DNA of 44,570 bases, counting the filler, from Jimgerdemannia flammicorona (taxonomy: Eukaryota): NCBI GenBank assembly GCA_003990765.1. It is 2 parts of 2 records of this genome, joined end to end, with 100 filler letters (N's around TTAATTAATTAA, not from the genome) between each part and the next. Parts side by side here need not be neighbours in the genome. Positions count along the whole stretch, not along the records: positions 1 to 22,238 come from RBNJ01001314.1; 1 more part is not named here. One strand, given 5' to 3'. Made by a program: the position numbers and the translations under genes. Below the pieces are notes generated by a model. That model saw only the letters and a program-made list of their open reading frames with translations. It was not told the origin of the DNA and made no database searches. Numbering within the stretch: the first letter of the stretch is position 1; each line of letters begins with the position of its first letter. This document shows positions 4,510 through 35,467 of the stretch, in pieces.

Positions 4510-4960
4510 GGGGCAAGATAGACAAGACAGTAAGACAGTAAGATGGCAAGACAGTAAGATGACAAGACAGACAAGATGACAAGATGATAAGATAGGCAAG
4601 ATAGACAAGACAGACAAAATGGGTGAGATGGACAAGACAGGTAAGATAGACAAGATGGTAAGATGGCAAGATGGGTAATATAGATAAGATAGGCAAAATA
4701 GACAAAAAAGGCAATATAGGCAAGATGGGCAACAGGAGCTAGATGTAAGACAGGCAAGATAGCAAGACCAGTAAGACAGATAAGATGAGTAAGATGAACA
4801 AGACAGATAAGATGGGCAAGATAGACAAGATAGTAAGATGGCAAGATAGACAAGATAGACAAAATAGATAAGATAGATAAAATGGCAAAATAGATAAGAT
4901 AGACAAGACAGGCAAGATAGGAAAAACATATAAGATAGGCAAGATAGGTAAGATAGGTAA
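4510..4960. repeat. 9-10 bp minisatellite (G(G/A)CAAGA(T/C)(A/G)G), left part
   Basis: Tandem gacaagata/ggcaagatg/gacaagaca units. Source of the LSCLSCL/ILPIL-type spurious ORFs. Continues at 17241 beyond the Gypsy insertion. Confidence 0.95.
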
Positions 4961-7021
4961 TGTAAGAGGGTTGCTTTTTAGGGTAACCATTACATAGTTC
5001 TGGAAGGGTTTTCTGGAAGTTCTGGATATTCTGGAAGACTATTTTCTTATGGTCAAGATCAATTTTGTATTGAGTATGTCCTCAATGCTTATTGATTTCA
5101 AGATCGGGTTGATGTCTCAACCAAGGTCCTTTTTCGAACTAGTTCTGAATATTCAGGATTTTCTATATTTCCGAAAGTTTAAGAAACTAAGACCGGCTTA
5201 ATTGAATTGGCGTATCACTGTGACAATACCCAATTAGGAAATTTCGTGACAGGGTTAGGAGTGGGACCTAACAGAGAGTGAATTTGCTTAAGAGTGGTTT
5301 GTGGGTTATTAAATAGGTTTATTCGCTATTCATAATATTGCTATACTAGGAGTAGTTATGTGAAGGGGTAGTGTGGGGAAGTGCTCAGGAGTTGTGTTCA
5401 GATTGTTCAGGTCTGAGATTCTGAGGTCTGAGGGAGGGGGTATTTATACTAGTAAGGGGCTATCTGGACTATACTAAATGTAGATGTAGCACTTAGTGCC
5501 TTACAGAGTCAGAATATAGTCATATAGTACAAGTGTGATCTGATATGTCAAGAGATCGTCTAACTGCTGAGTCAGTTCACAGTCACGTCGTATAATGCTA
5601 ATCTAACTATACTATGACTGCTAAGCTATTTATAGTTTTAGACACTATCTGGGTAGTCTTCGATGATATCACCATTGATGACATCATCTCTGATAAAGTA
5701 GTTTTCTAGAAAAAGTAGTTTGCGGATTACTTCTCCTTATTCACTGAGGTAATAATATATTGGGACTTCATCACTATCTCACAGGATAGCATCATCTATC
5801 TCATATGCTGGATAAGGTATTGGTGGGTGAAGGAGTGGTGCATCGTCTTTGCTATCATCAGATTTGCTGTCTGCATACCTTCTATAAGTTACTGTACTAT
5901 GAGTTGTAGGGTTATAGTAAGCTAGTGGTTGTAGTTCATGTTGCTCATACTTAGGTGGTGGAGTTGCTGGTTCGATGTCGAGGGTTGTCTGAAGGTACAG
6001 GTTATATTCTCCAGTCTCTTCATTATAATTGAAGTAATTGGGAGCAAACGTGGGTTGGTATTCATACTAGTGGTCATTGTCCCAATAAGTCTTGTATGCA
6101 GTTATAAACTGTTGTAAGTTCATTGGCAAGGTTGGCGGCATGACCAGAGTTGGTAGAGATCTGTGGCTTGAGGTCATATTGGCATCAGAGGGATCATTGT
6201 CTTCTGCTTCATCTTTGTCGAGGTGGATTATATCGTAGATGTCCTTCATGACATATCCAACTTGGAGCATTTGCAGGATATAGTCGTTAGGGTGCAGGAA
6301 GGTTCTGTCTGTAGTTTTAACATACTCAAGGTACTTGTAGTTGAGTTCTTATATTATGTCATCGATTTGGCCATAAGACAGGGTAGCAATCATTTCGCTG
6401 GTAGTGACTCAGAGGTAGGGAATAAAGGTGCTATACTCATAAAAGAGTTCTCAGTGTTTGCAGGCAATAAGTTTCTAGTGTTGAGACATCTGGATAATGT
6501 CTGTATCATAGTGGCATTTGACAATATCTTCCAGGAGGCAGCCGATCTGGTAGTAGCTTGAGATTTGTCTGATCTGGTAGGTCTCATTAAGCATGTTCAG
6601 AGCATTCCATCGAGCTTCCACAAAGTAGAGGGGTACTAGGCTATGGATATTCATGGGAGGCAGAGGGGGTGTAGCTTAGTTGACAATGGTATTCCAAATG
6701 TCAGTACAGATATAGTTGTAGATCTTGGTGGTCATATTTGTGTGTTTGGAAATTGTGGTTGTTGTTTGTTTTGGTTCTGCTTTGACACGTCTCGGTGCTT
6801 GGTATATATGCAATTGGTCCTGATTGGTAAGATTCTGTTTGTGTGAATCTTGTATTCCATGACTTCGTGTTGACTTAGCTTTGTGTGTTGTGACTTCGGT
6901 TTGACTCAGCTTTGTAATCTTGCAGATGATTTCCAGATTTGTTCAGAGATCGCAGGTGATTTTAGTAGCTTATTCAGAGGGTAACATGTGATTTCAGTGA
7001 CTTGGAGGTTGTATGCTTACA
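4961..7021 (-). repeat. 3' LTR (2061 bp)
   Basis: TGTAAG...CTTACA inverted termini, colinear with 15181-17240. First 60 nt differ at 4 sites, all transitions. Minus-strand TATAAA at 5443-5448 and AATAAA at 5318-5323. Confidence 0.97.
5638..6735 (-). pseudogene. LTR(U3)-encoded ORF of unknown function, 3' LTR copy (366 codons, no frameshift, several stops)
   Basis: ATG at 6735 to TAA at 5638 is 1098 nt in one frame. Most internal stops are sense codons in the other LTR or fit C>T changes. Includes track ORF 6067-6270. Confidence 0.8.
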
Positions 7022-7035
7022 ACTCTCCCCTTCTT
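7022..7035 (-). other. Polypurine tract
   Basis: AAGAAGGGGAGAGT on the minus strand, directly abutting the 3' LTR. Same motif at 18202-18215 in the related element. Confidence 0.9.
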
Positions 7036-8741
7036 AGCTTTTGATGTCCTTGTCAGGGCTTTCTAATTTGTTCTAGTGTTGTTACACCATTTGGGAGGTC
7101 AAAAGTCCAGTGAAGTCCATTTCTCTCAGAAAGTGGCATGCTCGTAGTACAGTTACCTAACACGTTGGATTTACACATTAAAGGGTCATGTGTTCAATGC
7201 TGTATGCCAGAAGTGATTCTGATGTCATTCACTACTGGAGAATTTCCTCTAAGGAATCTTCTTAAATGTCTATGCCTCGTTTTCCACCAGTGGTATGGGG
7301 AGAATAGGCTTGCTTTCAGTTTTGCTATTTTTCTAGAGGATCAGTATTCTTTTGTCTTGTCTTGCTGAGTTCTTGATTTTGTTCATGATAATTATAGTGT
7401 TCAGGAGGGTAATATATAGTATGTACTGATAGATATTGGAGTATTCAGATTTCAGTTGTTTAAGGAATCATATTCCTGAACTAAGTTGGTAGCATTCTGG
7501 AGGTTGGTCTTGGGTTCCCATGTTGTATCATGGATCAGATAACCTTTCCATTTGACAAGATACTCAAGGTGGTTCTTGTGACCATATTTGTTAAGAATTT
7601 GTTCAACTTTGTACTCTTCTTGATCATTAATAATGATGGGTGCAGGTGGTTTCATGGTTCAGTTTGAGAATAGTTCTTCATCATTCTCATTATATTGCTT
7701 GAGACATTGGACATTGAAGACTGGGTGAATCTTAATAGTATCTGGTAGTGCCAATTTGTAGGAGGTCAGAGAGACTTGTGCAATGACTTTGAATGGTCCA
7801 ATGAACTTGCTGTTCAGCTTTATAGATGGTCTGTGTTTGAGGTTGTCAACTCGGTATCCTCAGATATCTAGTAGAACTTTTTCTCTAATATCGAAAGTTT
7901 CTTCTCAGCAGTATTAGTTAACATACTGTGACTGTTGTTCTTGAGCTCGCAATAAGTTCTCGATTGCGATCTGGCTTAGATTATGCATTTGGAGCAAGAA
8001 TTCTTCAATAGCTTCGACTGTGGAAGGTTCATCAGTAGTTCGGATAAGTGTCAGAGGAGTGTTTGGATTTTGTCCAGTGTTGGCGAAGAATGGGGTCATT
8101 TGAAGAGAGGCTTGCTTGCTGTTGTTATAGGCAAACTCAATTGCAGTGAGATGTTCATACCAATCATCTTGTCTGTAGGAAATATAGTTCCTTTGCATTT
8201 GTTCCAGAGTTCGGTTCATTCTTTTGGTTTGGCCATCAGTTTCAGAGTGAAAGGCAGGGGATAGTGCAAGTTTTGTTCCAAGATATGCATGGAGGGCTTT
8301 CTAAAAATAGCTGGTGAATTTCGGATCTTGGTCACTAACAATGATCTTAGGAAGACTATGATAGTGGAAGATGTTGTCAAACAAGAGTGTGGCTATGTCT
8401 GGTGCTGTTGCAGTAGTGATAGTAGGTACAAAGTGGGCTTATTTGCTGAGGTAGTCTACAAAGACAACAATTGCATCTTTTCCATTCTTAGTTCAAGGTA
8501 GTTGTATAATGAAGTCCATAGAGATTTGTTCCCAATTAGCAGATGGTACTGGGATAGGGTGGAGTAGACCAGGTTTTGCTAGTGTTGAGGACTTGTTGTA
8601 TTGGCAGGCATCACAGGAAGTGATGTAGGTCTTGAGCTGATCTGCCATGCAGGGCCAATAGAAGTTTCGGGAGATAACTTCATAGCATTTGTCAAATTCT
8701 AAATGTCCAGCTGTAGGTACATTATGATATTTGAATAGGAT

Positions 8742-10339
8742 CGGGCTGGGCTCCCTGGTGGATGTGGGGGAGTTACAGAGGTCTGTGGAATGGTATGAGA
8801 GGGGCTCTGGGGCTAGGCTGAACTGGCACAAGTGTGAGACTCTAGTGCTAGGTGCTGGGATTGTTGGTGGCAAGGTCATTGGGACAGTGGTACCAGCTGG
8901 AGAACCAGTGCGATATTTGGGGATCTACTTCTTGGTGTTCAGGTCTCTTCTTCCCTGAGTGTGGTGGGATCGTAAATTGTTAGAGTGGGAAAATGTTCTG
9001 CTGTGCTGGGGAGGCTGGCATATGTCCCTAGCTGGAAGGGTAATGGTGCTGAATGTGTATTGGATGCCGAAGCTGTGGTACATTGGTTATCATTTGGATT
9101 TCCCAACCTGGGTGGTCAAGGGGCTGTTGAAGATGGCGAGGTCATGGATCTGGGGAGGGAGGCAGAGCCAGGTCGGTTGGGAGGTGCTCACACTGCCCTT
9201 GAAAAGAGGTGGGCTAGGCTTAGTGGACTTTCCTAAGCAGCTCCTATGCCTTAGAGCTTGGTGGTTGAGAAGAGCAAGAGAGCTTCATGGTCGGGAGTGG
9301 GTGCTACTCATACAGCAATTGTGGGAGGTTCGGTACTCCCCACATGGTGACTCGGGTGATCTGCTCGTAATGGTGGCCATGGAGGGGAGTGGGAGGATGT
9401 GGTTTACGGGCTTCTGGTGGGGGGTGGTGGATAGCGCGAAGAAGATTGGACTTCAGTGGCGAGGTGATGAAGCTGAGGAGGATTGGGGACCACAGATGTG
9501 GCGGTGGGACAGGTTGTTACTGGGTGGTGTCCTGGTGGAGGACTTTAAGCTTGGTGAGGGTCTGGAGTATCTGCGAGGCCTAGGTGGAGACCTGTGGCCT
9601 GAAGCCTGGCAGAGAGTCGGAATTGGTGAGGAGTGGGACTGGAATGGAATCTGGCTCTAGAGCAAAAGGGTGAGGCAGTGGCTGCCCCCCAAGTTCTGAG
9701 TGATATGGTGGCATGTCCTGCGGAGGAATGTGATGTTGAACTATAGGTCTGGGCACTTGGTGGATGGTGGAGGATTCAAGTGTGAGGAGTGTTTCAATGT
9801 TGGCCAGGAGGGAGGTGTGTTACAAATGCCTGAACATTGGCTTGGCAAGTGTGAGGTTTTGGAAGATTATTGGAGAGGTATTAGGAGCCGGGTGGGGCAG
9901 AGTGCTCTGGAGGGAGAGAGAGGGGGGAGATGGGGAGAGCTCTGCCAGCGGCTGGTGGGGGGAGTTGGGGATGAGTGGCTGACCCTTGGGTGGGCCTTGG
10001 CTATATGGGTCGAGTTGACTGGACATTGGGTTCATGTCTTTGAGGAAGGGCATCGGGTTGGGGTTGGGGACAAGTTGGCACATTGGGAATGGTTGCTTTT
10101 GGACATTATGAATGGATGGTGGCAGGGTTGGGGGCTGGGTGGAGGGCACCGCAGGGGGCTGGTAAGGTGCATCTCTCAGAAGAGTGGTGGAAGGATTCGG
10201 GTTGTGGGTGGTCAGATAGTGCTCAGACAGGGAGAGATCGAAGGGGGAGGCCTGGGCCCATGGGGCATCGGTTGAAGGGGAGAGCGACATTGTATTATTA
10301 GTACTATAGACTTCGGTAATAAAGGGCAGTCCAAGTGAC

Positions 10340-10370
<31 letters not shown>
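8742..10370 (+). mobile_element. 5'-truncated L1/Tx1-like LINE (family A) inserted in the Gypsy integrase zinc-binding region
   Basis: RT C-terminal motifs YLGIY and SLAGRVMVLN...PKLWY, GGLGL, zf-RVT-like CEEC...HWLGKC; AATAAA then poly(A) to 10370. TSD atgatatttgaataggat (8724-8741) vs atgacatttgaattggat (10371-10388), 2 mismatches. Confidence 0.95.
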
Positions 10371-10373
<3 letters not shown>

Positions 10374-12743
10374 ACATTTGAATTGGATAGTCCTTTGGAG
10401 GTCTCAGTTGTTTGGGACATATAGTCTGTCCTTGTAGTAGATAGCATTGTCCTTGAGTTGGTATTGATGGTATCAGTATGCTTATCAGTATCGTCACTAT
10501 TCAGGATTTCTCAGAGTACTTGAGCTTCCTTATCATCAGCATATACTGTGATAATTTGTTCTATGATAGAGTTTGTAGCCAAGGTGAGGGTTTGGATAAC
10601 TTCTTCGATTGGTGGTCTGGAGATTGCATCAGCAACAATGTTTTCCTTGCCAGGGTGATACTGGATTTCATAGTCAAAGTTGGTGAGGACTTTCATCTAT
10701 CTGGCTTGCTTTCAAGAAAGAGTAGCCTGGGTCTTGATATTGACTAATGATTTGTGGTCAGTCAATATAGTAAAGTGTGCTCCTTCTAGATATGGTCACC
10801 ATTTGATCAGAGTGTCTACAATGGCTAGCATTTCCTTCTCATGGGTTACATAGTTAATTTCGGCATCATTGAACTTGTGGGAGTGATAGGCTACAGGGTG
10901 TCCTTCTTGTATAAGTATGGCTCCAAGGGCTAGGTCAGAGGCATCAGTGGTAACTTCATATGGCAGTGCAGGGTTTGCCGCTTGAAGTACTAGAGTGGTT
11001 ATCAGGGCATCCTTTAGTACTTGAAAGGCAGTATCTTGCTCAGGTCCCCAATTTACAAGATTGTTGAAGTCTTTTTCTTATTTCGTGGTCCAGGGTTGTT
11101 CTTCTTTCTTGCTATACTTGGTCATTTGAGTGAGGGCAGTAGTGATTTTAGCAAAGTTGGCAACAAATCACCTGTAATAGTTTGCTAATCTCAGGAATAA
11201 CTGGAGGTCTTTCAGTTTCTTAGGTCTGGGCCAGTCCTTGATTGTGGAGATTTTTCTAAGGTTCATCTTGATTCCATTTGGTGTAACAATATGTCCAAGG
11301 AATTGAATTTCCTTCAGGAGAAATTCACACTTACTGAGTTTTGTGAAGAGTCAGTTTTCTTGGAGTTTCAGTAGTACTAGTTCAAGGTGTTCAAGATGTT
11401 CCTCCAGAGTTTTGCTGAAGACTAGGATGTCATCAATGTAGACAACAACAAATTTGTCCAAGTATGGGTGCAGGAGAGTGTTCATCAGTGTCTGGAATAT
11501 TGCAGGAGCATTAGTTAAGCCAAAGGGCATAATCAGGAATTCGAAATGTCCATAGCAAGTCCAGAAGGCTGTCTTGTAGATGTCTTCTTCTTTCATGGCA
11601 ATTTGCCAGTAACCATTTTATAGGTCAAAAGAGCTCATGAATTGTGGGTTGGTAAGCCTATCGAATATTTCATCAATTCTTAGTAGTGGGCAACAGTTCT
11701 TGATGGTCTGTTCATTGAGGTCTCAGTAATCAATGCACATTTGCAGGTCTCCTTCTTTCTTGACAACAAAGAGAACTGGTGCACCATAGGGTGATACACT
11801 GGGTCTGATGAACTCTTGTTCTAGGAGGTCATCAATTTCCTTCTTGAGTACATCAATTTCTCTCAGAGACATATGATAGATTGACTTGAAGGCTGGTTTG
11901 GCATCTGGGATAGTCTTGATCGCATAGTCTACTGCTCGTTTGGGAGGTAGGCCTTTCGGGAGCTTCTTTGGGAATATGACTCAGAATTTCTGGAGTAGAG
12001 GTCTGATATGGCTGTCAACTTTGGAAAAATCTTCTTCAGAGTTCTCGGGTTCTCCTTTGGATGGGAAGATGGAGATAGCAAAGAGAGGGCATTTCTTGGC
12101 CAAATTCTTGAGTTGTAGCTTATTGATGTGGTCTAGGATCGCTAGAACTGAGTGGGTCTTTTTCACCTTGCAGTTTGAAGTTGTGGCATCCTTTCTTGAT
12201 GATCAGAGAATAGTTTACCCAATCAATCATGGGGTTCTCCTGTTTCAACCATAGAGTTTCAAGAATGATCTCATTGTCAGAAAGTGGTACAATTTGGAGA
12301 GTAATATATACTCGATAGTCATCAATTTGGAAGGGCAGATTGTGGACTTCTTTGCTAATAATATATGAGGTTCTGTCAGCTGTGGCAACTGCTTGAGTTT
12401 GTTGTACCAGAGAGGTAAAAACCTTGAGTCTGTTGGCTGTTTCCTCATTGATAAAGTTGCCTGAGGCACCACTGTCTATTATAATCTTGACAGGTACTCG
12501 ATTGACAAAAGCTTTAAGTATAAGCAGTTTGTCTAATTTAATGGTAGTGATTTTAGTTATAGGAGCTTTCCTTCTGTTGGTTCTTCTTTAAGCCAGTTTG
12601 TTGATACAAGAGAAGTAATCATCAATTATTCGGAAAGAGTACATTCCAATACCATGGGGGCATCGGCCACTTGGTACATATCCGTCTTCAATCTTCTTGT
12701 AGAATTGTTCTTCCTTGTTCATAGTAGGTTGGGCTGGCACCTT

Positions 12744-13154
12744 GTTTGATGAGCCAAATCCTTTAGATCCTCAGATAGTGGGCAGTAGTTCAGGAACTTC
12801 CTTGACTGTCAGAGTCGACTCAATTTTTTTGAATAGAATCTGGGCAATACAGAAACCAATAGGGATCTTGAAGGGTGTCCAACTGTGGTTTCGGATGAGG
12901 ACAATAATTTCGCCTGTATAATCCTTGTCAATGACTCCCTCTTCTACTAAGAGTTCTTTCAATACTAGACTGCTATGACAGCATATTCTTCTAACATGTC
13001 CTTCAGGGATTTGGATACTGATTCCTGTGTAGACTTGCTTGACTTCTCGGTTGGAAACTGTAGCTTCTTCGGCTGCATATAGGTCATATCCAACTGCCTT
13101 TTGACTTCCTTTAGTTGGGACCTTGGCATTTTGCCTTAACTTGACAAAGTCTAG
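12744..13154 (-). pseudogene. dut: Trimeric dUTPase domain within the Gypsy polyprotein
   Basis: Translation LDFVKL...AVGYDLYAA...TGISIQIPEGHVRRICCHSSL...GVIDKDYTGEI...CIAQILF...(TGA for R)GSKGFGSS shows all five dUTPase motifs in order. Confidence 0.95.
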
Positions 13155-15165
13155 TGTTCTGGTGGTCAGGTTGTTGAGGTGGTGCAGAGTGGTAACAGTT
13201 GCTTGTGTTGCTGTTTGGGGTTTTCAGTTAGGGCAGGCACTGGCCATATGTCCTGTCTTTCGACAATAGAAGCATGCTTCACTTCTTCGAAGTTTATTTC
13301 TTTCTCCTTCAGTCAGTTTCTTGAAGGTACTCAGCTGGGCAGGTTTGTGATTTCTGGGTGTCTAAGAGGTGGATGTGGAGGGAGCTTGGGATGCTTCATG
13401 CTTGGGTTCTTCTTTCTTAGTCCAAGTCTTTTCCTTGTTATTGAATTGTCTTTGAGGCAGAATTGGTCCAACTGTTAGGATTTGCTTGACCATAGTCTTG
13501 ATTCTTGCCAGGCACTATTGTTGGTGATCACAACCAACTGGGCAGCCTTGTTCTTGGATTTTTCTAGTAAGCCATTCAGGTAGTGCATCAAATAAATGAT
13601 CTGCTCTTGTACCATTTCTTACTTCATCATTGGCAATATATCCTAGGCCAACAGTGTTCAGGAGTGACTCAAGTTTTGTACAGAAGGTTTCGAATTCTTC
13701 TTTGCCATGTACATCGAATTTGAGGTTATGGAGTTTTACTTGAGATTTGGCAATCATGGTTTCGCTGCGATATTGAGTAATCATGAGTTGTTTGAGTCCA
13801 GGGGCTGCAGGGTGGGCTCCATATCCTGGGGCATTGTTTGCTGCATTCTGAGCAACTACTGCAGGTTGGGTGTCTCAAGTGAGAGGTTTTTCAGGAAGGG
13901 TTCGCCACTATTCTTCAGCAGGTCCTTGAAGAATATAACAATTTGCTGGATATAGACTGTGGTGGTAGCAAAGAGTTGTTCTAGAGTGTGGTCTTGATTA
14001 TTTGTCAGAATACAGTTAGCAACTTGCTCATTGGTCTATTGATTGGCTTCAAAGTTGGTGTCAACTATACTAATGAAGCTTTGGACTTCTTGTGCAGTAC
14101 TATTGAAGGTAGGTAGGCTCAGATTTTTGGTAGGTCGGGTCTGTTCAGCTAGGGCAGTAATGGTTGCTGCCATTATCGCCACTTGGGCTGTGAGGTCTAG
14201 AATCTGTTGGTTCGCCATGTTGTTTACTAGAGGCAGTTGGACTGCTGGTAGTGGTGTTACTGGTACTACTTGAGGTACTGGTGTAGAGTGTGATGGAGTT
14301 CTTTGGGTCTGTGTAAGTTGCTGGAGTAGTAGTTGTGGGTCTGGAGTAAGAGCTTGATAGATAGCTGTCTGTTGCTGTGTCGGTATATTTTGTCCTGATG
14401 GAGGGGTGTCTCCTTCGGTAGTATATCTGGGATCGAATTCACTGAGATACTCCTCCTCCTCTTCGGTTTGGTCTCCATGTAATTGGGTCTGCTCAGCATC
14501 AAAGTAGATGGAATCAGTTGTATATCTAATTTCAGATGGACTTAATTCAAAGTCAAGTTCTGGTTCAGTATTGGTTTCAGATTCAGGTAGGGCTGTAGCA
14601 GGGCCTGCTCCTGGTTTGGGGTCAGGTAGTTGATGAAGGGTTTCTCTTGCTTCTTCTTTAAGAATATGGCAGGCCTTACTGTTCTGGAATCAGTAGTATA
14701 ATGCAGTCTTGGTCCTGGTATAGTGAAAGTCAGTAGAGTTGAGCCACTTGGCTATAGAGGCTTGGGCTTCATGAGGAACTATGGCTAGAAAGACTGCTGC
14801 TGGTTGTCCTAGGTCACTCAGATTTGTGGAGCTGATAAAACTCTTGTTGAGAAGAGTAAAGAAGACTTCAATAAGACCTTCTTCATCTTGACTTGCTGGG
14901 TGTAGTGCAAGGAGTTTGGTGAATAGAGTTTCACCTATTTGCTGGTTTAACTGGAGTACTTTTTTCTTTGAATGAAGTTTGTCCCACTTGTTGCAGGTAT
15001 AGAGGTCAAATTGTTCTTGGACATCAGGTTCAATTCTCTTCAGATTGTCAGATAGTTCAGGATAAATTCCAGTTCAGAGGTTGGGCTTCATACCAACTTG
15101 TAGGAATTCGCAGAGGGGTTTATAGTGGAGTGAGGAAGCATCTTGAAGCAGAATTAGATTATAAA

Positions 15166-15177
15166 CTGCTGCTATCA
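15166..15177 (-). other. Probable primer-binding site (initiator tRNA-Met-like, one G>A change)
   Basis: TGATAGCAGCAG, 3 nt inside the 5' LTR; resembles TGGTAGC..., the complement of eukaryotic tRNAiMet 3' ends. Confidence 0.55.
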
Positions 15178-15857
15178 AGTTGTAAGAGGGTTGCTTTTTA
15201 GGATAACCGTTACGTAGTTCTGGAAGGATTTTCTGGAAGTTCTGGATATTCTGGAAGACTGTTTTCTTATGGTCAAGATCAATTTTGTATGGAGTACATC
15301 CTCTATGCTTATTGATTTCAAGATCAGATTGATGTCTCAACCAAGGTCCTTTTTCGGACTAGTTCTGGATGTTCAGGATTTTCCATATTTCAGAAAGTTC
15401 AAGAAACTAAGACCAGCTTAGTTGAATTGGTGTATTGCTGCAGACAATACCTAATTAGGAAATTTCATGACAGGGTTAGGAGTGGGATCTAATGGGAAGT
15501 GGATTTACTTAAGAGTGGTTTGTGGGTTATTAAATAGAGTTATTCACTATTTATGATATTGCTATACTAGAAGTAGTTGTGTGAAGGGGTAGTGTGGGGA
15601 AGTGCTCAGAAGTTGTGTTTGGATTGTTTAGGTCTGAGATTCTGAGGTCTGAGGGAGGGGATATTTATACTAGTGAGGGGCTATCTGGACTATACTAAAT
15701 GTAGATATAGTACTTAGTGCCTTGCTGAGTCAGAATACAGTCACATAGTACAAGTATGATCTGATATATCAAGAGATCATCTGACTGCTAAGTCAGTTTA
15801 CAGTTATATCATATAATACTAATCTAACTATACTATGACTGCTAAGCTATTTATAAT

Positions 15858-16954
15858 TTAGGCACTGTCTGGGTAGTCTTTGATGACATCACCATCAATG
15901 ACATCATCTCTAATGAAGTAGTCATCTAGAAAAAGTGATTCGCAGATTACTTCTCCTTATTCACTGAGGTAATAATACATTGGGACTTCATCACCATCCC
16001 ACAGGATAGCATCATCTGTCTCGTATGCTGGATAAGGCATTGGCGGGTGAAGGAGTGATGTATCATCTTCGCTTTCATCAGATTCGCTGTCTGCATACCT
16101 TCTATAAGTTACCACACTATAAGTTGCAGGGTTATAGTAAGCTGGTGACTGTGGTTCATGTCACTCATACTCAGGTAGTGGAGTTGTTGGTTCAATGTCG
16201 AGGGTTGTCTGAAGGTACAGGTTGTATTCTCCAGTCTCTTCATTATAATTGAAGTAATTGGGAGCAAATGCAGGTTGGTATTCGTGCCAGTGGTTATTGT
16301 CCCAATAAGTCTTGTATGCAGTTATAAACTGTTGTAAGTTCATCAGCAAGGTTGGTGGCATGATCAGGGTTGGTAGAGATCCTTGGCTTGAGGTCATGTC
16401 GGCATCAGAGGGATCATTGTCATCTGCTTCATCTTTGTCGAAGTGGATTATATCATAGACATCCTTCATGGCATATCCAACTTGGGGCATTTGCAGAATG
16501 TGGTCGTCAGGGTGCGGGAAGGTTCTGTCTGTAGTTTCAACATACTCGAGGTACTTGTGGTTGAGTTCTTGTATCATGTCATCAATTTGGCCATAGGACA
16601 GAGTAGCAATCATTTCACTGATAGTGACTTGGAGGCAGAGAATAAAGGTGCTGTACTCATAAAAGAGTTCTCGGTATTTGCGGGTGATAAGTTCTGGTGT
16701 TGAGACATCTGGATAATGTCTGTATCATGGTGGTGTTCGACCATGTCTTCCAGGAGGCAGCTGATCTGGTAGTAGCTTGAGATTTGTCTGATCTGGTGGG
16801 CCTCATTAAGCATGTTCAGAGCATTTCATCAGGCTTCCACGAAGTAGAGGGGTGCTAGACTATGGATATTCATGATGGGTAGAGGGGGTGTAGCTCGGTT
16901 GATAATGGCATTCCAAATGTCAGTGCGGATGCGGTTATAGATCTCAGTGGTCAT
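15858..16954 (-). pseudogene. LTR(U3)-encoded ORF, 5' LTR copy (1-nt deletion near 16690)
   Basis: MTTEIYNRIRTDIWNAIINRATPPLPIMNIHSLAPLYFVEA... continues through track ORFs 16610-16813 and 16161-16613 to TAA 15957 or TAA 15858. Confidence 0.8.
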
Positions 16955-17021
16955 GTTTGTGTATTTGGAAGTTGTGATTATTGTTTGTTTTGGCTCTGCT
17001 TTGACATGTCTTGGTGCTCAG

Positions 17022-17127
17022 TATATATGCAATTGGTCCTGATTGGTAAGATTCCATTTGTGTGAATCTTGTGTTCTGTGACTTCATGTTGACTCGGCTT
17101 TGTATGCTGTGACTTTGGTTTGACTCA
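17022..17127 (-). promoter_or_regulatory. Candidate promoter for the LTR ORF (TATATA, two CCAAT boxes, TGAGTCA)
   Basis: TATATA 17022-17027 about 70 nt upstream of ATG 16954; CCAAT at 17032-17036 and 17042-17046; TGACTCA 17121-17127. Also present in the 3' LTR and partly at ~18030-18090. Motif evidence only. Confidence 0.45.
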
Positions 17128-17240
17128 GCTTCATAATCTTGCAGATGATTTCTAGATTTGTTCAGAGGTTGCAGGTGATTTTAGTAGCTTATTCAGAGGG
17201 TGATGTGTGATTTCGGTGACTTGGAGGTTGTACACTTACA

Positions 17241-17458
17241 GGTAAGATAGACAAGATGGCAAGATAGCAAGATAGGTAAGATGAGCAAGATAGGATAGAC
17301 AAGATGAGTAATATGAATAATATGGGTAAGACAGGCAAGATGGGCAAGATGTACAAGATGAGCAAGACAGACAAGATGGGTAAGATAGGCAAGATAGGCA
17401 AAACTGACAAGACAGACAAGATAGTAAGATGATAAGACAAGTAAGAAAGGCAAGATAG
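17241..17458. repeat. 9-10 bp minisatellite, right part
   Basis: Same unit as 4510-4960; begins with the GGTAA TSD. Confidence 0.95.
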
Positions 17459-17630
17459 GGAGGCACTAATAAGGGTACATCAGATATACCAAATACTAAG
17501 TACTTGAGATAGTTGGGGCTCACAATATATATCTACTCTTAGATAGGACAGACTAGATAGGAGGATGGTATGGGGTGATATTGTATCATTATTATTATAG
17601 ACAGCAGTAATAAAGAGAAGTCCAAGTGAC

Positions 17631-17661
<31 letters not shown>
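17455..17661 (+). mobile_element. Short 3' fragment of LINE family A
   Basis: Tail gtaataaagagaagtccaagtgactat-poly(A) matches 10316-10370. Left boundary approximate. Confidence 0.85.
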
Positions 17662-20600
17662 GATATTTGTAGCAATAAGTTTCTGATGTTGAGATATTTT
17701 AATAATGTTTATATCATTGTAGTGGTTAACTATATCTTCTAGAAGACAGCTAATCTGGTAGTAGTTGGAGATTTGTTCAATTAGGTAAATTTTACTAAGT
17801 ATGTTTAGAATATTATAATAGGCTTTTATGAAATAAAAGAGTACTAGATTATGAATATTAATGAGAAGTAGGGGAGCTGTGGCTTGGTTGACAATAATAT
17901 TCCAAATGTTAGCATAGATGCAGTTGTAGACTTTAGTAGTAATGTCTGGATATATATTGAGAGTTGTAGTTATAGTTTATTATAGTTCTTTATTTTTAAC
18001 ATACTATATATTTAGAATATGCTTTTGGTCCTGATTGGTAAGGTTCTATTTTTATATATCTTATATTCTGTAACTTTGAGTTGACTCAGCTTTATGATCT
18101 GTAACTTTGGTTTGACTTAGCTTTATAATCTTATATATGAATTCTGAATTTTCTCTGAGTGTAATATGTAATTTTAGTAGCTTAGAGATTGTGTACTTAC
18201 AACTCTCCCCTTTTTAGTTTTTGATATTCTTGTTGAGATCTTCTAATTTGGCTAGTGCTATTACACCAATTAGATGGTCAAAAGTCAGATAATATTCCTT
18301 TTTCTTAGAAAGTAATATACTTATAGTATAGTTGTTTAATATATTGAATTTATATATTAAAGAATTATGTATTTGATGTTATATATCAGAAGTGATTCTG
18401 ATATCATTCAGTGCTGGAGAATTTTCTCTAAGAAATCTTCTTAATTATTTATACCTCATTTCCCATCAGTAGTACAGAGAGAATAGGCTAGCTTTCAGTT
18501 TTGATATTTTTCTAGAGAGTTGATATTTCTTTTTTTCTTAGTTTGCTAAGTTCTCAATTTCATTTATGATAATTATAAGAGTACTTTTAACAATATTCAG
18601 GAGGGGTAATATATAGTATAGAAATGATAGGTTGAGGGATATTTAAACTAGTTGTTTAAGAAGTCATATTCTTAAACTAAGTTGATAGTATTCTGGAGAT
18701 TTGTTTTGAATTTTCATATAGTATAACTTTTTCATTTGACAAGATATTCTGGATGATTCTTGTGGCTGCATTTATTGAGAATTTGTTCAATATCATATTC
18801 TTCTTAATTATTAATAATGACAGGTACTAGTGGTTTTATAATTTGATTTGTGAATAGTTCATCATTATTTTCATTAGATTACTTGAGATATTGAATATTG
18901 AATCTTAGTATCTGATAGTACTAATTTGTAAAATATTGGAGAGACTTGTATAATGATTTCACATAGTCTTATGAACTTACTGTTCAGCTTTATAGAGTAT
19001 CTATACTTGAGGTTATCAACTTGATATTCTCAGATATTTAGTAGAACCTTTTCTCCAATATCAAAAGTTTCTTCTCAGTAGTACTGGTTGATATATTGTA
19101 ATTGTTACTCTTGAGTTTGAGATAAATTCTCAATAGCAATCTGGCTTAAGTTTTACATTTGAAGTAAGAATAATTGTATATTTGAAGTAAGAATTCTTCA
19201 ATAACTTCGATAGTAGAGAGTTCATCAGTAGTTCTGATAGTATTGAGAGAGTGTGTGGATTTTATTCTATATTGATAAAGAATGGGGTCATTCCAAAAAA
19301 GCTTATTTGCTGTTATTATTAGTAAACTCCACTATGATAAAGTATACATACCAATTATCTTATCTATAGAAAACATTATTCCTTAGCATTTGTTCTAGAG
19401 TTTGGTTCATTCTTTTAGTTTGTCTATTAGTTTCAGAGTGAAAGATAGTGAATAGTACTAGTTTTGTTCCAAGGTGTACATATATGGCTTTCCAAAAATG
19501 GCTAATAAACTTTGGATTACAGTTAATAACAATTATCTTAGAAAGGCCATAATAGTGAAAGATATTGTCAAATAAGAGTATAGTAATGTCTGGTGCTATT
19601 GTGGTAGTAGCAGTAGGTATACATAAAATGAGCTTATTTGCTAAGATAGTCTACAAAGACAATAATTGCATCTTTTCCATTCTTGGTTCAGAGTAGTTGT
19701 ATAATGAAGTCTATAGAGATTTGTTCCCAATTAGCAGATAGTACTGAAATAGAGTATAGTAGTCTAGATTTTGCTAGAGTTGAGGACTTGTTACATTGGT
19801 AGATATTATAAGAAGTGATATAAGTCTTTAACTAGTCTGCCAATAGGGTCAATAGAAGTTTTGGGAAATAACTTTATAATATTTATTAAATCCTAAATGT
19901 CTAACTGTAGAAGCACATGATATTCAAACAGAATAATTCTTTGGAGGTCTCAATTATTAGAAATATACAATCTATTCTTATAATAGGTAGTATTGTCCTT
20001 CAATTAGTATTGATGATATTGGAAGTACTTATTAATATCATTACCATCCCTTTCTCTGCTATCTTACTAGTTACAATAGTTTGGTAGGCAACCTTCCAAG
20101 TTCACTTTCTACTACTTTTACCCCCTCTACCTCAGGTTGGTTTGCTGCATCTGTTGCAGAGCAGTGGGGAGAAGACAATGGTGATAAGTTGCCCCTTTAT
20201 TGGTGTCTGATCAGTATCTTCTCTACTTTGTCATGGTTTCTGATACTTTTGGCTGTATCTGGAGTACATTCATTTTGGCGCAGTGCTTTCTTCCTTTTGC
20301 CATTACCACCAAGGTATTGTCTCAGTGCATTATGGGTTAAGTAGGGAGTTAGCCAACCTTGGGTGTCAAGTGTCCAGTATAGGTTATCTGCAGGTCCTTG
20401 GTGCCTGTGGTGGGGCCCTCTGGCTTTGGCAAGCTTCTTGGTGAGTGTGGTTCTGGTGTAGGTGACTGTTTTTCAGGTATTGTTGGGATGGAAGAGGAGG
20501 TGGCCATTACAGATAGGAGGAGGAGCAATTATGGTAAACCAGTAGGATACCAGACTGGGGGTGGTCATCAGAGCTAGAGCAAGTGCTGCTTTGGTGGGGC

Positions 20601-22338: not shown

Positions 22339-22920
22339 CTCCCCCCTACCCCTTCTCAACAAAAGACCACTTTATCAAACACCATCTCCACCTGCCCACT
22401 ACTCTGTTCACAGATCCCTTCCACCAGATGGTGATGTTGCCCACCTTGTGGTCCCCATCCAACCCACCACCCCATCAGCAAATCTGTCACCAACTCCTCC
22501 CATCTCAACAACTTCTCCCATATCCCTATCTGTCACCTCTCCTCGAAAACAAAGAGCCAATGGCCAGCCAACCCCACCCACACTGCCACAACCCACTCTA
22601 CAGTAAGCCACCTATTGCCGACACCTCCCACAAGTCTAGATTCCAGATCTTCCCAGCAACCTCTCTCTCTATCTGGTCTCCTCTCAACCCCTAGCCAGTC
22701 TCCTACAGCTATCCAAAAGTCCCCCAGCACCTCATACTCCCCCAGCCAATGTTTTGGCATTTGTACAAATCTCCCAACTTGCCCAACATTATAACACTCC
22801 TCACAATCCAGTTGACCACCATCCACCAGATGCCCAGCATGGAAGTTCAACATAACATTCCTCTGCAACATTTACCACCACACTACTCAGAACTTGGAAG
22901 GAAGCCACTGCCATACCTCT
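22339..22920 (-). mobile_element. LINE family A fragment (ORF2 zinc-finger end)
   Basis: Track ORF 22533-22871 (MLQRNVMLN...CEEC...HWLGE) is homologous to ORF 9700-10275. Confidence 0.9.
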
Positions 22921-29420: not shown

Positions 29421-31707
29421 ATGTCAAACAACACCAACACCCCCGCCGACCCCCCCCCCCCACCATTCATCGACCAGATCTATGACCAGCTCAAGCAAGT
29501 CTTCGGCGGAATCGCGGAAGACCAGCTGTTTGTGATGGAGTTTCCGGGCCGCCCGCTCGCCCAGGGCACGTACCAGTACCCCGGCGCGGGGACCGTCGAC
29601 GGCGAAACACTCAGGCCTACATCGGTTGCGCAAGAGGAATTCTTACTGGCCGACGGCATCATCCCATTGGGCGACATCGTTGGTGGGCCGACGGGTGAGA
29701 AGCTCTCGGAGACGTGGCAGTACATCATCAACAATCTGATTCCCATCCCTGAAAGCAACGGCACGCTGCAGGCCGCGCAGGACGCGGCGCGCCTGTGGCT
29801 TAACGACTTGGTGGATTTCCAAGGTGGGAAGGTGAAACGCATCGACGTTTATCACACGCTCAACCAGGCCTACGACAATGCACTGAAGGCGTTTAATGAA
29901 CTTGTCGAAAGTAAGAAGCCCAAGCCGGGGGCCCCTGCCAGCGACTTCGAAACATTTAACGAGTGGTACGTAAACCAGCAGCCCGCTAAAGACGATATCG
30001 AGGACCTGCATAGCCAGCTGCTCGCGCAGGTGGACGTCTCCGGCGTCAAAGCGAGAATCACCATCCTGGATACTAAGGCCGCAGACGGCATTCTCGAAGA
30101 TGCCAGGGTGACTCTCCGTGATTCAGAGAAGCTGGCGCTCAGCGGAAGCGGGAAGGTCTACCCTGTTGATTTCACGCCCCGAGATTGGGTGAGCATGGCA
30201 ATATTTTGGAGTTACGTATATACATATATGTGTTTTACTGAGCGTTATTAACAATATTTTCAAACTAATATGGCTTCGCAGGCAAAAGGTCTGAGCACAA
30301 ACTTCTTACCCGAAGACTTGACTCAAGACCCTGATAGTCTCGAGCAGCAAAAGTTGTCCCTCGAAAGCTCACGCGACAACTTGCTGGAAACGAGACGGCT
30401 GCTGGTCGATTCACAGACTGGCAACATCACGAAGCTCCAAGCCGACAAGGACGCCGCCGAGACAGCGTACCAGAATGCCCAGAGCGCCTTGATCTCGCAA
30501 TACACAGATGCGGTCGCCGATATTGCCAAGATCTACCTCAAGAAAAAGTACCCCAACGACAACATTCCCGATAACGCCAAAGCCAGCGATGATTTTACGG
30601 CCATAAAAAATGATGTCAACAGCGAAGTCACCACCAAGTTGGGCAAACCCCCCCTGAGCGACGATGACATTAACAAGCTTGTCAAGTTGCAGAAGGCAAC
30701 TATCTTAGCTCAGCAGAATTTGACGACCACCTCCAAGAACCTGGTACTCCTACAGGAGGCCTTGGCCAATGCCCAGTCAACCGATGCGAAACAGTCGTTG
30801 GCAGTCCTTGACGGCCAGATCAAATCGCTTACTACGCAGATCAACACCATTGACAACTCCATAAACCGCGTTCTCAACCATCCTGTGCGTGTGTTGCCGG
30901 ATGGAACTTCTCCACCGGTCCAACTCATTCCACCGAGTAGGACATCGGTGAGTTATTTCCAAGATGTCATTATAAAATCGACTGCCAACAGCCAGTCCCA
31001 CAGCTCAAGCTTGATGTCGGGCGCGAGCCATACATCGTGGAGTGTCGATTTGATCTTCGGTTCTGCTAGCGGGAATAGCGACAGCCAGTACTCCAATTTC
31101 AACAATACTGTAAAGGCTAAAAATACAAGTATTAACATCGGATTCAAGGTACGAGTAGTGAGCTACTATTTTCAATGAAAATGCGGTGTATTCACGAGAA
31201 ATTAATATTAATCGGATGCACTTTCACAACTATATATCCCAGGCTATGAAAGTTGTCATGGACCGCCCATGGTTCGAACCCACCCTGTTCCAACTGACCT
31301 CCGGTATGAGCCGTGTCTCCCCCGGCCCACTAATCTCGACCGGTCCGCCCACTCGTCCGGATCCCTTCAACGGGGGGACGTGGAACAAAAACCTGAGTGA
31401 TACGCAGAAGGCGTCGCTCCTTCCGGCCTATACAATCGCTTTCATCGTCGCGAAGGATATCACGATCCATATTCAATGCGAGGAGAGCGTCGCGAATGAA
31501 ATGCACAACGTTCTCAGTAAGAGCAACACTATCGGCGGTGGCGTGTTTTGTTTCTCCGCGTCGCATAGTGACGCCTCGTCCAGCGATACTCAGAGCTTTG
31601 GCTCTCAGGCGTCCTCCCAAGGGTTGATCCTACGCATCACCTCTCCCCAGATCATCGGGTGGTACTTGCAGTGCGTGCCTAAGGATGAGAGTCAGAGACT
31701 TCAATAA
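29421..31707 (+). CDS. Uncharacterised 699-aa leaderless protein: N-terminal domain, long coiled-coil hairpin, C-terminal putative beta-pore-forming-like domain
   Basis: Exons 29421-30188, 30282-31148 and 31243-31707, joined by phase-0 GT-AG introns of 93 and 94 nt (CTAAT branch at 30265). No stops, GC-rich coding bias. The gene model is strong; the function is inference. Confidence 0.9.
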
Positions 31708-33066
31708 GTTGTAGGGCAGTCGGGTATCCAATATGTCATACAGTAGTATTTTGATACCTCTTGATCGACGTAGTTTATTTTCGATTCCTTACTTCATTCG
31801 AATTCCAAAAGGGTGCAATGCATAAATATGTCGGGCTATCGCCGCTTTGTTGGGAACCAAGTTGAATAAAAAGACTGATATTCAGTTCATGACTTTCTGT
31901 TGACGGCAAATTGTAAAACACGTGCTTTGAATTCACATGTCCCTCGTTCTCTGATCGATAGCCAAGGGCGATCTTTGGATTTTCCTCGCTGACATAAAGT
32001 TTATTGGACATAAACTGGCATGCACCTATCGCCAGAAGATTTGAAATTTCTCAAACGCACAAGTGGCGTGACGAGGAGCGGCGACAGAGCTCATCAGGTA
32101 GCATGTTACAAAGAGTGTCAGCTTGGGCTCCGGCGATATTGGATATCGCAGCAAAATGCCTCTTCGACAATAATATCGAAACAGCTTCTGTGCAGGTGGG
32201 CATTTGAAATTCTCTTCATATTTCTTGGAAATTCGGTAAAGCTGAATGGCGCCGCAAAGACCGGTAGCACTGATGTCGACGCTATATTTGGTAGGGAGTT
32301 GGACAATGTGTGCTTAAAGTCGTGGAATGTCGGACGCGACCAGGGAGGGTGATGGGATATAGTTCGCGTCGGTAGTTGAACAATTTGCGGCGTACTTGAA
32401 TTTTTTCAGTCGTGCATCGATACTCTCCACAAAAGAGGCCTGTTGGATATAACTATGTACGTGGAGTACGTCAGAAATTCATCGCGTATGTACAAACAGA
32501 AACGTCACATTATCCGAACAATTATATAGTGATTTTCTACACGTCATCAGAAATAGGGCTTAAAAACAAAAAGTTCATAAGCAAGCATCCGTATGAATAT
32601 TAATTTAGCTATTATTGTCATAGTGCTCTCATCGGGCCAAAATTGAAAGTGTTTTCCCGCGAGGTGGAGGGCTGGCGCTACCAGTATTTCAACGCTCCGA
32701 AAGAGCATATCCATCCATATAATTACAGCTATTATCATCGCCATCATCGCCATCGCCGCCTTCCACGAAGAACATGTCTTCCACAGTACCAGAGAAGCCA
32801 GCAGTTATCGAGAATCAATATGACACAGTCACGAATTCGCGGTCGATTGCGTCACGCGACACGAGCGGTCACGCTACAGTGACGGACACAAATTTTAAAA
32901 CCAAATGTGGCTGCGATACAATCTAAGGGACTAAAAAAAGTTATTCGATTTGAAGTTTTAACTTGTTCGAATACGTATAGTTATCCTATGTCACATGTCC
33001 CGTCGCTTGACTTTTGTTTTAACACCGCGCCACGATTCGGAAGTATTTCGTCCCACTTTTATAAAC

Positions 33067-33873
33067 ATGGTCGAGCAATCCAATAGCGGTCTTAGTCTCA
33101 GGGACAACATTGCCTCCATCTGGAAGGACTCAACCTACCACGATGTGACCATCGCCTGCGCTGATGGTGCCGAGCTTGGTGCGTGCCGTGCTGTACTGGC
33201 TTCAAGGTTAGTCCGATTTCGATTCTCTTACACAGTTTAGTTGTATTCCTTATTTTTCTGCATGCCTGATTTCATATGGTCTCTTAATTGGTGTCCAATA
33301 TTCAAGGCGATGCTGTATGGAAACAGGCGAGAGGGTTCCTGTCTTCTCGTTGCCCTCAACGACATCACTCAACATCGTCCTCGGCTTCATTTACACCGAA
33401 AAATTGACAACACGGCCCACATTTCCGTCGCAGTAGGGATATACCATGCAGCGAGCTTTCTCCTCATCCCCAAGCTCATGATGATGGTGCTGTAACGTGC
33501 ACACAATCTCGCTGATTTTGGTGTCGCCTCATCGCTTCTCAACGAAGCCGCTGCCGCCATCCTGTGGAGCGAAGCCAACAAGGACCTCTACGACGTACTT
33601 CTCAACCCCTTCCGCGCTCACAGGCTCGTGGTCTACAGGGACCAGTATAATGATACATTTGATCAAACAGGCCAATACAAATATGGCAAATATATTGAAA
33701 ATGGTGATGTAATAACCTTTCATTTAAACCTCAATTATCATACCTGTGCCCTTTTGATCAATGGATTAAATTACAGGACAGCCTGGAGCAATCTCCCTGA
33801 CAATATGTGCCCTGCTGTGACCTTATATGAACAATGCAAGTATCGGATAAAAAATTATCAAGCTGAATGGTGA
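33067..33873 (+). pseudogene. BTB/POZ-SPRY pseudogene, inverted paralog of 35468-36987
   Basis: MVEQSNSGLSLRDNIASIWKDSTYHDVTIACADG...RAVLASR with the same intron position (donor 33207). Acceptor reads TG not AG (33289-33290); frameshift near 33365; stop at 33493-33495; large internal deletion near 33640 joining to the SPRY C-terminus GDVITFHL...PAVTL. Confidence 0.9.
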
Positions 33874-35467
33874 GGTGGATGATCTATCTATTCTTAGCTT
33901 TGCAATATAAATGCCATTATTTAATTAGTACAGTTGTATCATCCTAACGTTTTCATGAATTTTTTTTATTTTCGACCCATGTCTTAACTCTAAGTTATAT
34001 TCTCCTTAGATAGTACTCTATCATGATTGAATATTAACACAATAAATTTTTCTGTTTTGTCAAAGAATGACATTTGAGCTCTGGCCTCCGATATCATATT
34101 GTACCTTGGCCTAGCATGAAGGACGTTGAACTCCCATCTTGTAATTCTATATAGTTCAAAACATCCTAACCCCATAATTATCGAGAGGGCTGGACATCTA
34201 CCCAAGATTAGTATCTCCGACGAGCGTTTGGATGGTTGAGAATATATGGTTGGTTCCATTTGTGGCACTAGAAATCAACTATAAGAAAAAAGTACAAAAG
34301 ATACACATGTGTCTAATCATTAATTTATAGGGAATAAAGGCAGGAGCACAAATTCCTAATTTGTTTAATTAATATCATCGAATTTTATTTCGAACAGCCT
34401 GGTCTTAGCCATGCATAAGTGATACCATAGCTCCTCATTCTCCGGTTCGTATTCTGTTTCGCTCAGGGGTGACATCATTTGACAATGTCTCAAGCGATTA
34501 TATCAAAGGAATAAAGATTGCTTACCCATCAACCAATGTAATTGGAATGCGCAACGGTGGGCAGACCGATATTAAATCAGAGATACTTCCGGCACTGTTG
34601 AATATTTTCGCCTTCTAACATCAAAATCATGTGGGCTCACATTGTTTCGTGCTTAGTAAATAAGCGATCGCGATGGCTTGAGAGGCTCGAATGTCGAGAG
34701 TATGGTTGTGATGGTTTGAGCGTGTCGGCATGAGCGTTGTCATAAAATGCCTTTTAGTGTGCGAGTGAAGGAAAAGGAACAAAATTGACAAGGACGAAAA
34801 ACGGCGATAGTAAAATCGAGAATGACGTTGAACTTAGTAGACAAACATACAAACACACTAACAAATATGTCAATAATAATCACAATAAAACGGTGTTGCT
34901 TCTATTTCGAGGTCCATTACTACGCAGATTGCTTTCTGAATTTTACTCGGTTGGAAGAAATAGGACAGAAATAAAAAAAAATAAAAAAAAACTAACGGCG
35001 TCTTGGAATCGCGTTTTAGCTTGCTTTCAACCAGGCTTCTGTTCCCAGTTCTGAGATAAGCGAGGAGTACGTGAATATGTTAGATCACCTTTGATATTTT
35101 TGGAGGGAAGGTTATATAAAGTTATATATAAAGATCCGGCCCTTGTGGCCGAGATTTAATTGATAGTAATTGACAATATTACCAATGAATATAAAAATTG
35201 AAACTTGGACAAGGATTCTTGTTCGTGTAATTATCCAAGAGTTTAGTGCTTCGCCTGGCAGAACGTCTCTGTTTTCTTTAGGTATTATCACCAATGACCA
35301 AAATTCGAAAGTTTTAAAGTACTAAATTGAGAGCACAAAAAGAGACCCCTTTTATATTGAAAGATAAGAACATATACATGTATATATATCAGTGCAATAT
35401 ACAGATGTCAATCAGTTAATAAAAGAATGAAGAGAGATTTTATTCAATAAGTGAAAGAGAGACAAAA

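Follow-up and report, generated by a model that had tools for sequence, protein, structure and literature searches.

A probable protein-coding gene inside the long terminal repeats of a decayed fungal chromovirus

The long terminal repeats (LTRs) of Gypsy-type retrotransposons are normally non-coding and are treated as regulatory ends. They are masked in annotation pipelines, and a solo LTR is regarded as a dead remnant. The locus described here raises the question of whether an LTR of this kind can encode a protein of its own. It lies in a stretch of 44,570 nucleotides (hereafter 'the window') from Jimgerdemannia flammicorona, a soil fungus of the Mucoromycota (Endogonales), in which a first-pass annotation had proposed that both LTRs of one element carry an accessory gene. 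We consider it probable that a genuine accessory gene, 365 codons long and protein-coding, is indeed present in the 2-kb LTR of this chromovirus family, oriented in the sense direction and located wholly inside the LTR. Its frame has been kept open in diverged relatives and was intact at insertion but for one inherited TAA. The coordinates of the relevant features are collected in Table 1.

Table 1. Positions of the chromovirus, its LTR open reading frame (ORF) and associated motifs, counted along the window
Feature	Position	Strand	Remarks
5' LTR	15181..17240	minus	2060 nt, TG..CA ends; self-BLAST and alignment
3' LTR	4961..7021	minus	2061 nt, TG..CA ends; self-BLAST and alignment; polypurine tract directly upstream
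Target-site duplication TTACC	17241..17245; other copy 4956-4960	minus	5 bp; flanks both element ends
Polypurine tract AAGAAGGGGAGAGT	7022..7035	minus	adjoins 3' LTR
Primer-binding-site-like stretch	15158..15180	minus	adjoins 5' LTR
Internal region, gag to chromodomain	7022..15180	minus	Pfam matches; many stops
LTR ORF, 5' copy	15858..16954	minus	ancestral reading 365 codons plus stop
LTR ORF, 3' copy	5638..6735	minus	single continuous frame; seven private stops plus shared TAA
Shared TAA, codon 333	15957-15959 / 5737-5739	minus	sole lesion common to both LTRs
Third ORF copy, first 91 codons	17671..17943	minus	older, AT-rich, no stop; start ATG changed to ATA
Promoter-like cluster	17021..17127	minus	70-170 nt ahead of ATG; putative promoter
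TGAGTCA; CCAAT; CCAAT; TATATA	17121-17127; 17042-17046; 17032-17036; 17022-17027	minus	in both LTRs
TATAAATA	15662..15669	minus	downstream of ORF; candidate main promoter, putative role
TATAAATA, second	15848-15855	minus	directly after ORF stop; putative role

The carrier is a minus-strand chromovirus, complete but decayed, in which gag, dUTPase, PR, RT, RNase H, INT and a chromodomain are arranged between the two LTRs. Pfam matches in the internal region follow the order gag, dUTPase, aspartic protease, RT, RNase H, integrase (zinc-binding domain, core and SH3) and chromodomain, with E values of 1.4e-27 for dUTPase, 7e-30 for RVT_1, 9.9e-29 for RT_RNaseH, 7.8e-15 for Integrase_H2C2 and 8.7e-13 for Chromo. 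In the numbering of the minus-strand readthrough of 7022-15180, RVP_2 (residues 883-996) and the integrase domains (2147-2307) lie in one frame, RVT_1 (1140-1298) and RT_RNaseH (1403-1501) lie in another, and Chromo (PF00385, residues 2523-2571) is C-terminal of SH3_Tf2-1. The element thus has the hallmarks of chromoviruses (Ty3/Gypsy, Metaviridae), namely the pol order PR-RT-RNaseH-INT, an integrase whose C-terminus carries a chromodomain, TG..CA LTR ends, a target duplication within the range of 4-6 bp and a polypurine tract, and its earlier description as a chromovirus with an NC-dUTPase-PR arrangement was right in view of the domain order. The primer-binding-site-like stretch presumably matches a tRNA; a search for a tRNA gene within the window found none. 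Between the primer-binding site and the recognisable gag, about 380 open codons (14036-15178) lack a Pfam match, and this frame represents either an unusually long N-terminal extension of gag or a further uncharacterised domain.

On alignment, the two LTRs are 89.3% identical, with 218 substitutions (207 transitions and 11 transversions) and three gap columns. CpG and CpA contexts predominate among these differences, and the decay is of the cytosine-deamination type (transition mutation). The transitions are also asymmetric on the sense strand (128 C/T versus 79 G/A), and CpA/TpA contexts (45 and 28) are about as frequent among them as CpG contexts.

Both LTRs contain the same sense-strand frame, which begins with an ATG located 285 nt into the LTR, at 16954 in the 5' copy and at 6735 in the 3' copy. 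The lesions private to the 5' copy are TGA TGA at 16826-16831 (CGA TGG in the 3' copy), a deletion of 1 nt at approximately 16692-16693, and TGA at 16161-16163 (CAA in the 3' copy), and the 3' copy has seven private stops, at codons 20, 87, 95, 109, 129, 223 and 319. Each of the 10 non-shared stops, like the frameshift, is therefore confined to one or the other of the LTRs. The first-pass annotation had stated that merging the LTRs repairs most lesions, and the codons, the 1-nt deletion and the peptides are as it quoted them. Its choice between 332 and 365 amino acids was equally well founded, since one TAA is shared and a second TAA (15858-15860 / 5638-5640), which follows after 32 further codons, closes the frame.

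The occurrence of TAA at codon 333 in both LTRs implies that it was inherited from the parent copy. Because the two LTRs of an element are identical at insertion, the frame of the inserted element must have been open save for this inherited codon. The presence of TAA in the parent also implies that this copy could transpose without the full protein being supplied in cis. Both copies of the ORF in the window are now pseudogenes.

Proteins related to the ORF product were sought with the C-terminal part of the 5' copy against 5.8 billion clusters (a word-indexed search) and with the 3' copy against 1.84 billion representatives (a full HMMER scan). Approximately 15 billion proteins yielded just two true relatives, P0004 and P0005. 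Both are singletons and come from contigs of 998 and 1180 nt in environmental assemblies. P0005 (128 amino acids) is intact and corresponds to residues 1-128, with the same start methionine. Its first 89 residues match the 5' copy at 85% identity, and six of the stop positions, as well as the frameshift site, are sense in this protein. P0004 (247 amino acids) is likewise intact and corresponds to residues 115-365, with 63% identity to the 5' copy and two in-frame gaps. The other five stop positions are sense in P0004, which has N in place of the shared TAA. Each of the 11 stop positions and the frameshift site is consequently sense in at least one of the two proteins.

The C-terminus of P0004 (...YPDSI) corresponds to the exact end of the longer frame in the window (...YPDSA), and the 32 codons beyond the shared TAA are as well conserved as the rest of the ORF. 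Since P0004 continues past the shared TAA to the same end point as the longer frame, the ancestral gene had 365 codons, and the 332-codon form is a truncation of it. A third match, the 1958-residue bacterial repeat protein P0006 (31% identity over 40 residues, E = 1.3e-10), was dismissed as a repeat artefact. Two scans of metagenome contigs and a scan of genome contigs revealed no further copies and no DNA of the relatives. In viral contigs, nothing was found with alignment A3, the P0005 search returned one relative and no loci, and an exact 23-nt pattern had no occurrence.

Part of a third copy of the ORF is present in the window. It belongs to another, older element of related type (17672-19924), in whose 3' LTR a poly(A)-tailed insertion truncates it. 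It lies at the same distance from the polypurine tract of its element as the ORF does in the main element. This common location in the LTR of a second element implies that the ORF is a fixed part of the LTR of the family rather than a peculiarity of one insertion. The surroundings form a three-level nest (17241-19924 and 4511-4960). The older, AT-rich chromovirus fragment is on the minus strand, with 73% identity to 6464-8731, and its 3' LTR is truncated at 17672 by an insertion on the plus strand whose end is a run of approximately 35 A residues. Adjoining this insertion is a minisatellite of the (TCTTGCC/TATCTTAC) type (17241-17459 and 4511-4960), which was the insertion target of the main element.

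The third copy is informative with regard to selection. Over 89 codons compared with the 3' LTR copy, dN/dS is 0.20 in frame versus 1.19 and 0.72 in the shifted frames, and the differences number 19, 17 and 39 at the three codon positions. This spread departs from an even distribution (chi-square p = 0.003) and has p = 0.054 against the neutral LTR-LTR spectrum. Between the two LTRs of the main element, the NG86 ratio is 0.43 in frame, as it is in one shifted frame, and 0.95 in the other, and it is uninformative on selection because the transition bias lowers the ratio in every frame; equal in-frame and shifted values are what neutral decay after insertion predicts. Frame preservation was assessed in neutral simulations, in which 249 codons of the window ORF drifted to 63% amino-acid identity (1000 runs per substitution spectrum). 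Only 5, 12 and 29 runs remained free of stops under uniform, 2:1 and 95%-transition spectra, respectively (0.5-2.9%), and P0004 is stop-free.

Diverged copies thus keep the frame open and exhibit a synonymous excess, in a small sample that consists of two fragments, for which there is protein sequence only, and 89 codons of the third copy. This thin evidence points towards purifying selection on the ORF in the active lineage. Of the checks that had been proposed for the gene, dN/dS and frame preservation turned out favourably for the third copy (0.20 over 89 codons) and for P0004, whose gaps are in frame, and the LTR pair, at 0.43 in frame and in one shifted frame, lent no support. The proposal of an accessory gene is accordingly upheld in one part, that of a real coding sequence, by the intact P0004 and P0005 and by the synonymous excess of the third copy; the suggested role as a silencing suppressor or transactivator, the separate promoter and the placement in U3 are conjectural.

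As judged from its amino-acid sequence, the product is likely to be a soluble protein free of cysteine. P0004 and P0005 both have no cysteine and no hydrophobic segment, the highest 19-residue Kyte-Doolittle means being 0.97 and 0.57, respectively. The 247 C-terminal residues represented by P0004 have a pI of 4.05 and include 46 D+E versus 10 K+R, 23 Y and 24 P, and the protein probably ends in a long, disordered tail that is acidic (pI ~4) and rich in Tyr and Pro. Structure models suggest that the N-terminal ~100-180 residues are helical. With AlphaFold2, the whole 366-residue readthrough reached a pLDDT of 31, and the N-terminal 128 residues reached a pLDDT of 57.8 and a pTM of 0.51, with four to five helices only.

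The initial impression that no domain is recognisable agrees with all the searches made for a family or fold. Pfam gave no match for P0003, P0004, P0005 or the N-terminal piece of the 5' copy, and sequences in the PDB included no relative (best E = 0.47). The ESM Atlas contained no feature match for P0004, for which the Atlas model has a pLDDT of 0.39 and a best TM of 0.30. A Foldseek comparison of the N-terminal 128-residue model with the PDB gave nothing better than E = 2.1, and neither this low-confidence model (pLDDT 57.8) nor the comparison indicated a DNA-binding fold or family. A DUF5338 match on the 3' LTR readthrough P0001 (E = 0.0079, 16.7 bits versus a cutoff of 25.9) was rejected, and Rfam had no matches on the LTR.

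These features must be weighed against the view that the ORF is a passenger, captured from the host or from another mobile element, that renders no service to the retrotransposon and decays neutrally. Such an origin would accord with a product to which Pfam, PDB sequences and Foldseek assign no function, with a nonsense codon that was already present in the parent copy, and with the neutral evolution of both copies in the window. However, the ~15 billion proteins include no host-like homologue but only two fragments of the same ORF. Moreover, P0004 remains open over 247 codons at 63% identity, with the same stop position, as did only 0.5-2.9% of neutral simulations, and the older third copy has an in-frame synonymous excess. 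We therefore regard a passenger as unlikely and favour a gene that belongs to the element.

A second matter is where the gene is located relative to the promoters of the element. The motifs that had been noted upstream of the ORF (TATATA, two CCAAT and TGAGTCA) are present in both LTRs, as are both TATAAATA boxes. In our judgement, the short motifs taken singly do not exceed chance expectation. The CCAAT block is kept at 18 of 18 positions in the older third copy, where the remaining upstream region is 69% identical, and such conservation of promoter motifs is only suggestive. Given that gag opens directly after the primer-binding site and that two TATAAATA boxes follow the ORF, we infer that the main start most likely lies near 15630, which would place the ORF in U3, upstream of the main TATA of the element at 15669.

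The same motifs can be read differently, with the TATATA at 17027 as the only promoter and a real ORF that resides in the transcribed leader (R/U5) as the first cistron of the genomic RNA. This reading draws on the series CCAAT, CCAAT, TATATA situated 70-90 nt ahead of the ATG and partly conserved in the third copy, but it would require an R-U5 region of ~1.8 kb, and gag would have to be translated downstream of a 365-codon cistron and a further ~680 nt. The two TATAAATA boxes downstream of the ORF also speak against this reading. We consider it improbable, and more doubtful than a passenger origin. That the frame is a chance product of permissive merging of two decayed copies is hardly credible, for merging does drop every unshared stop and thereby inflates open frames, but when only stops shared by both copies are counted this frame is open over 401 codons versus 67, 70, 80, 86 and 132 codons for the other five, and P0004 and P0005 are independent intact homologues.

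Each LTR might function as a self-contained cassette in which a CCAAT/TATATA promoter ~70 nt before the ATG is followed by the ORF and by the LTR's own 3'-end signals. The protein could then be made from either LTR of the element and from solo LTRs, independently of gag-pol, and the TATAAATA directly after the stop, instead of being a TATA box, might contribute to forming the 3' end. An acidic-aromatic composition is typical of activation domains, and we therefore favour, speculatively, a trans-acting regulator or adaptor that would aid expression of its own element through an activation-domain-like acidic tail. The full proposal, offered as a tentative possibility, is that of an autonomous LTR cassette with a promoter and a terminator of its own, whose 365-codon gene would specify an acidic factor acting in trans, either as a transactivator or as an anti-silencing adaptor. 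Were it correct, a full-length copy would carry the gene twice and each solo LTR would be a potential expression unit. The element would then be a 'complex' LTR retrotransposon of an early-diverging fungus, with gene dosage scaling with LTR copy number, in parallel to the accessory genes of complex retroviruses.

By position, one of the nearest precedents is sag of mouse mammary tumour virus (MMTV), a superantigen ORF in U3 of a betaretrovirus LTR. In this virus, too, a dUTPase is encoded after the nucleocapsid end of gag and ahead of the protease, and it thus shares with the present element a complete sense-strand protein ORF inside the LTR and a dUTPase encoded before the protease. However, Sag is a type II membrane glycoprotein, whereas the product of the LTR ORF has no hydrophobic segment, and the present carrier is a fungal element devoid of env. 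Similarity to Sag was sought with Pfam, the 1.84 billion representatives and PDB sequences, and none was found. The parallel with MMTV drawn by the first-pass annotation is hence one of position and does not extend to a membrane segment, sequence or fold.

Accessory genes located at the 3' end and running into U3 are also known from foamy viruses (tas/bet) and lentiviruses (nef), and Tas combines an acidic activation domain with expression from an internal promoter of its own. Like the LTR ORF, these genes encode accessory proteins and overlap the LTR, and Tas corresponds to the working model proposed above; the composition of the tail (pI 4.05, 23 Y and 46 D+E in 247 residues) would fit a Tas-like acidic/aromatic activation region. 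Unlike the present ORF, tas/bet and nef begin before the LTR is reached. The ORF described here, including its start, lies entirely in the LTR, so that the element has one copy at each end. No homology of the LTR ORF to tas/bet or nef was found. The ORF also differs from an env-like third ORF, as it is not located between pol and the 3' LTR and has no hydrophobic segment.

Additional ORFs of other kinds are documented in LTR retrotransposons. According to the available portions of the respective reports, the aORFs of plant elements are family-specific, often without an assigned function and kept in most copies (PMC7264820), and the ORF3s of bdelloid rotifers are likewise family-specific extra ORFs (PMC5408684). 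Both kinds are described there as residing in the internal region, mostly between pol and the 3' LTR, in contrast to the ORF in the LTR described here (PMC7264820, PMC5408684), and the phrases 'in the LTR' and 'within the LTR' have no occurrence in the accessible text of the former (PMC7264820). Chromodomain Gypsy elements bearing a dUTPase, and thus having the same backbone as the present element, are reported from Postia, Phanerochaete and Tuber (PMC2864245), whereas the host considered here belongs to the Mucoromycota. The accessible part of that report describes no LTR-borne ORF in these elements, and one legend mentions an 'add. ORF' (PMC2864245). Cassandra TRIM elements, as far as the available text describes them, carry 5S rDNA in their LTRs, which resembles the present proposal as a gene-like LTR module with its own promoter but is a fragment of a pol III RNA gene and not a protein gene (10.1101/2023.07.14.548913). 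Topic searches of the literature outside subscription journals and Repbase, in the text accessible to them, yielded no protein ORF located wholly within a retrotransposon LTR.

What would be new here is a protein gene inside the LTR; extra ORFs of LTR retrotransposons and fungal chromoviruses bearing a dUTPase were already known. To our knowledge, an accessory gene positioned in the LTR is otherwise found only in a few retroviruses, and a conserved LTR protein gene would bring this position into a fungal Gypsy family. The copy number of such a gene would follow the number of LTRs, and the gene would outlast recombinational loss of the element body. Transposon control in Mucoromycota has been little studied, and an orphan protein with neither family nor fold may, speculatively, act there on element expression or host silencing. 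Long LTRs would be worth scanning for coding capacity.

Parts of the LTR also occur in public sequencing runs from soil metagenomes and from two organisms. Contigs matching the LTR at 80% likeness number 3275 in run X1 and 427, 390 and 367 in others, and all 30 LTR bins are covered in three DNA runs. The changes in matching contigs are mostly transitions among the 40 of 439 variant places listed, and contigs of three of four runs have the extra base at the frameshift site. The contig counts, the full bin coverage and the variants together indicate that the LTR family is high-copy and varied. In run X7, which we guess to be RNA, contig depth reaches thousands at 15388-15594 and is 0-22 over the ORF, and 15871-16284 has no contig cover, but contig depth cannot rank parts of the LTR.

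Several further observations concern the remainder of the window. A GC-rich (56%) plus-strand block with a poly(A) end (8959-10370) splits the chromovirus between RNase H and integrase and has weaker copies at 22509-22912 and 43948-44462. It contains long ORFs without a Pfam match and probably represents the 3' part of a non-LTR retroelement. Its 3' end sequence recurs ahead of the poly(A) at 17640-17672. The observed/expected CpG ratio is 0.00-0.3 in repeat-derived stretches (1-24 kb and 40-44.5 kb, some with 23-30% GC) and 1.0-1.1 in the gene-bearing 28-36 kb, and these two classes point to repeat-targeted cytosine methylation and deamination in Jimgerdemannia. A gene in the latter part (29421-30200) matches, at 100% identity, a protein that NCBI lists as a hypothetical protein of Jimgerdemannia flammicorona. 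Finally, two inverted BTB-SPRY paralogues are located within 32962-37272, where 33063-33628 and 36991-36424 are 68% identical. Pfam identifies BTB and SPRY in these genes, and their nearest Atlas clusters have BTB, BACK and SPRY.
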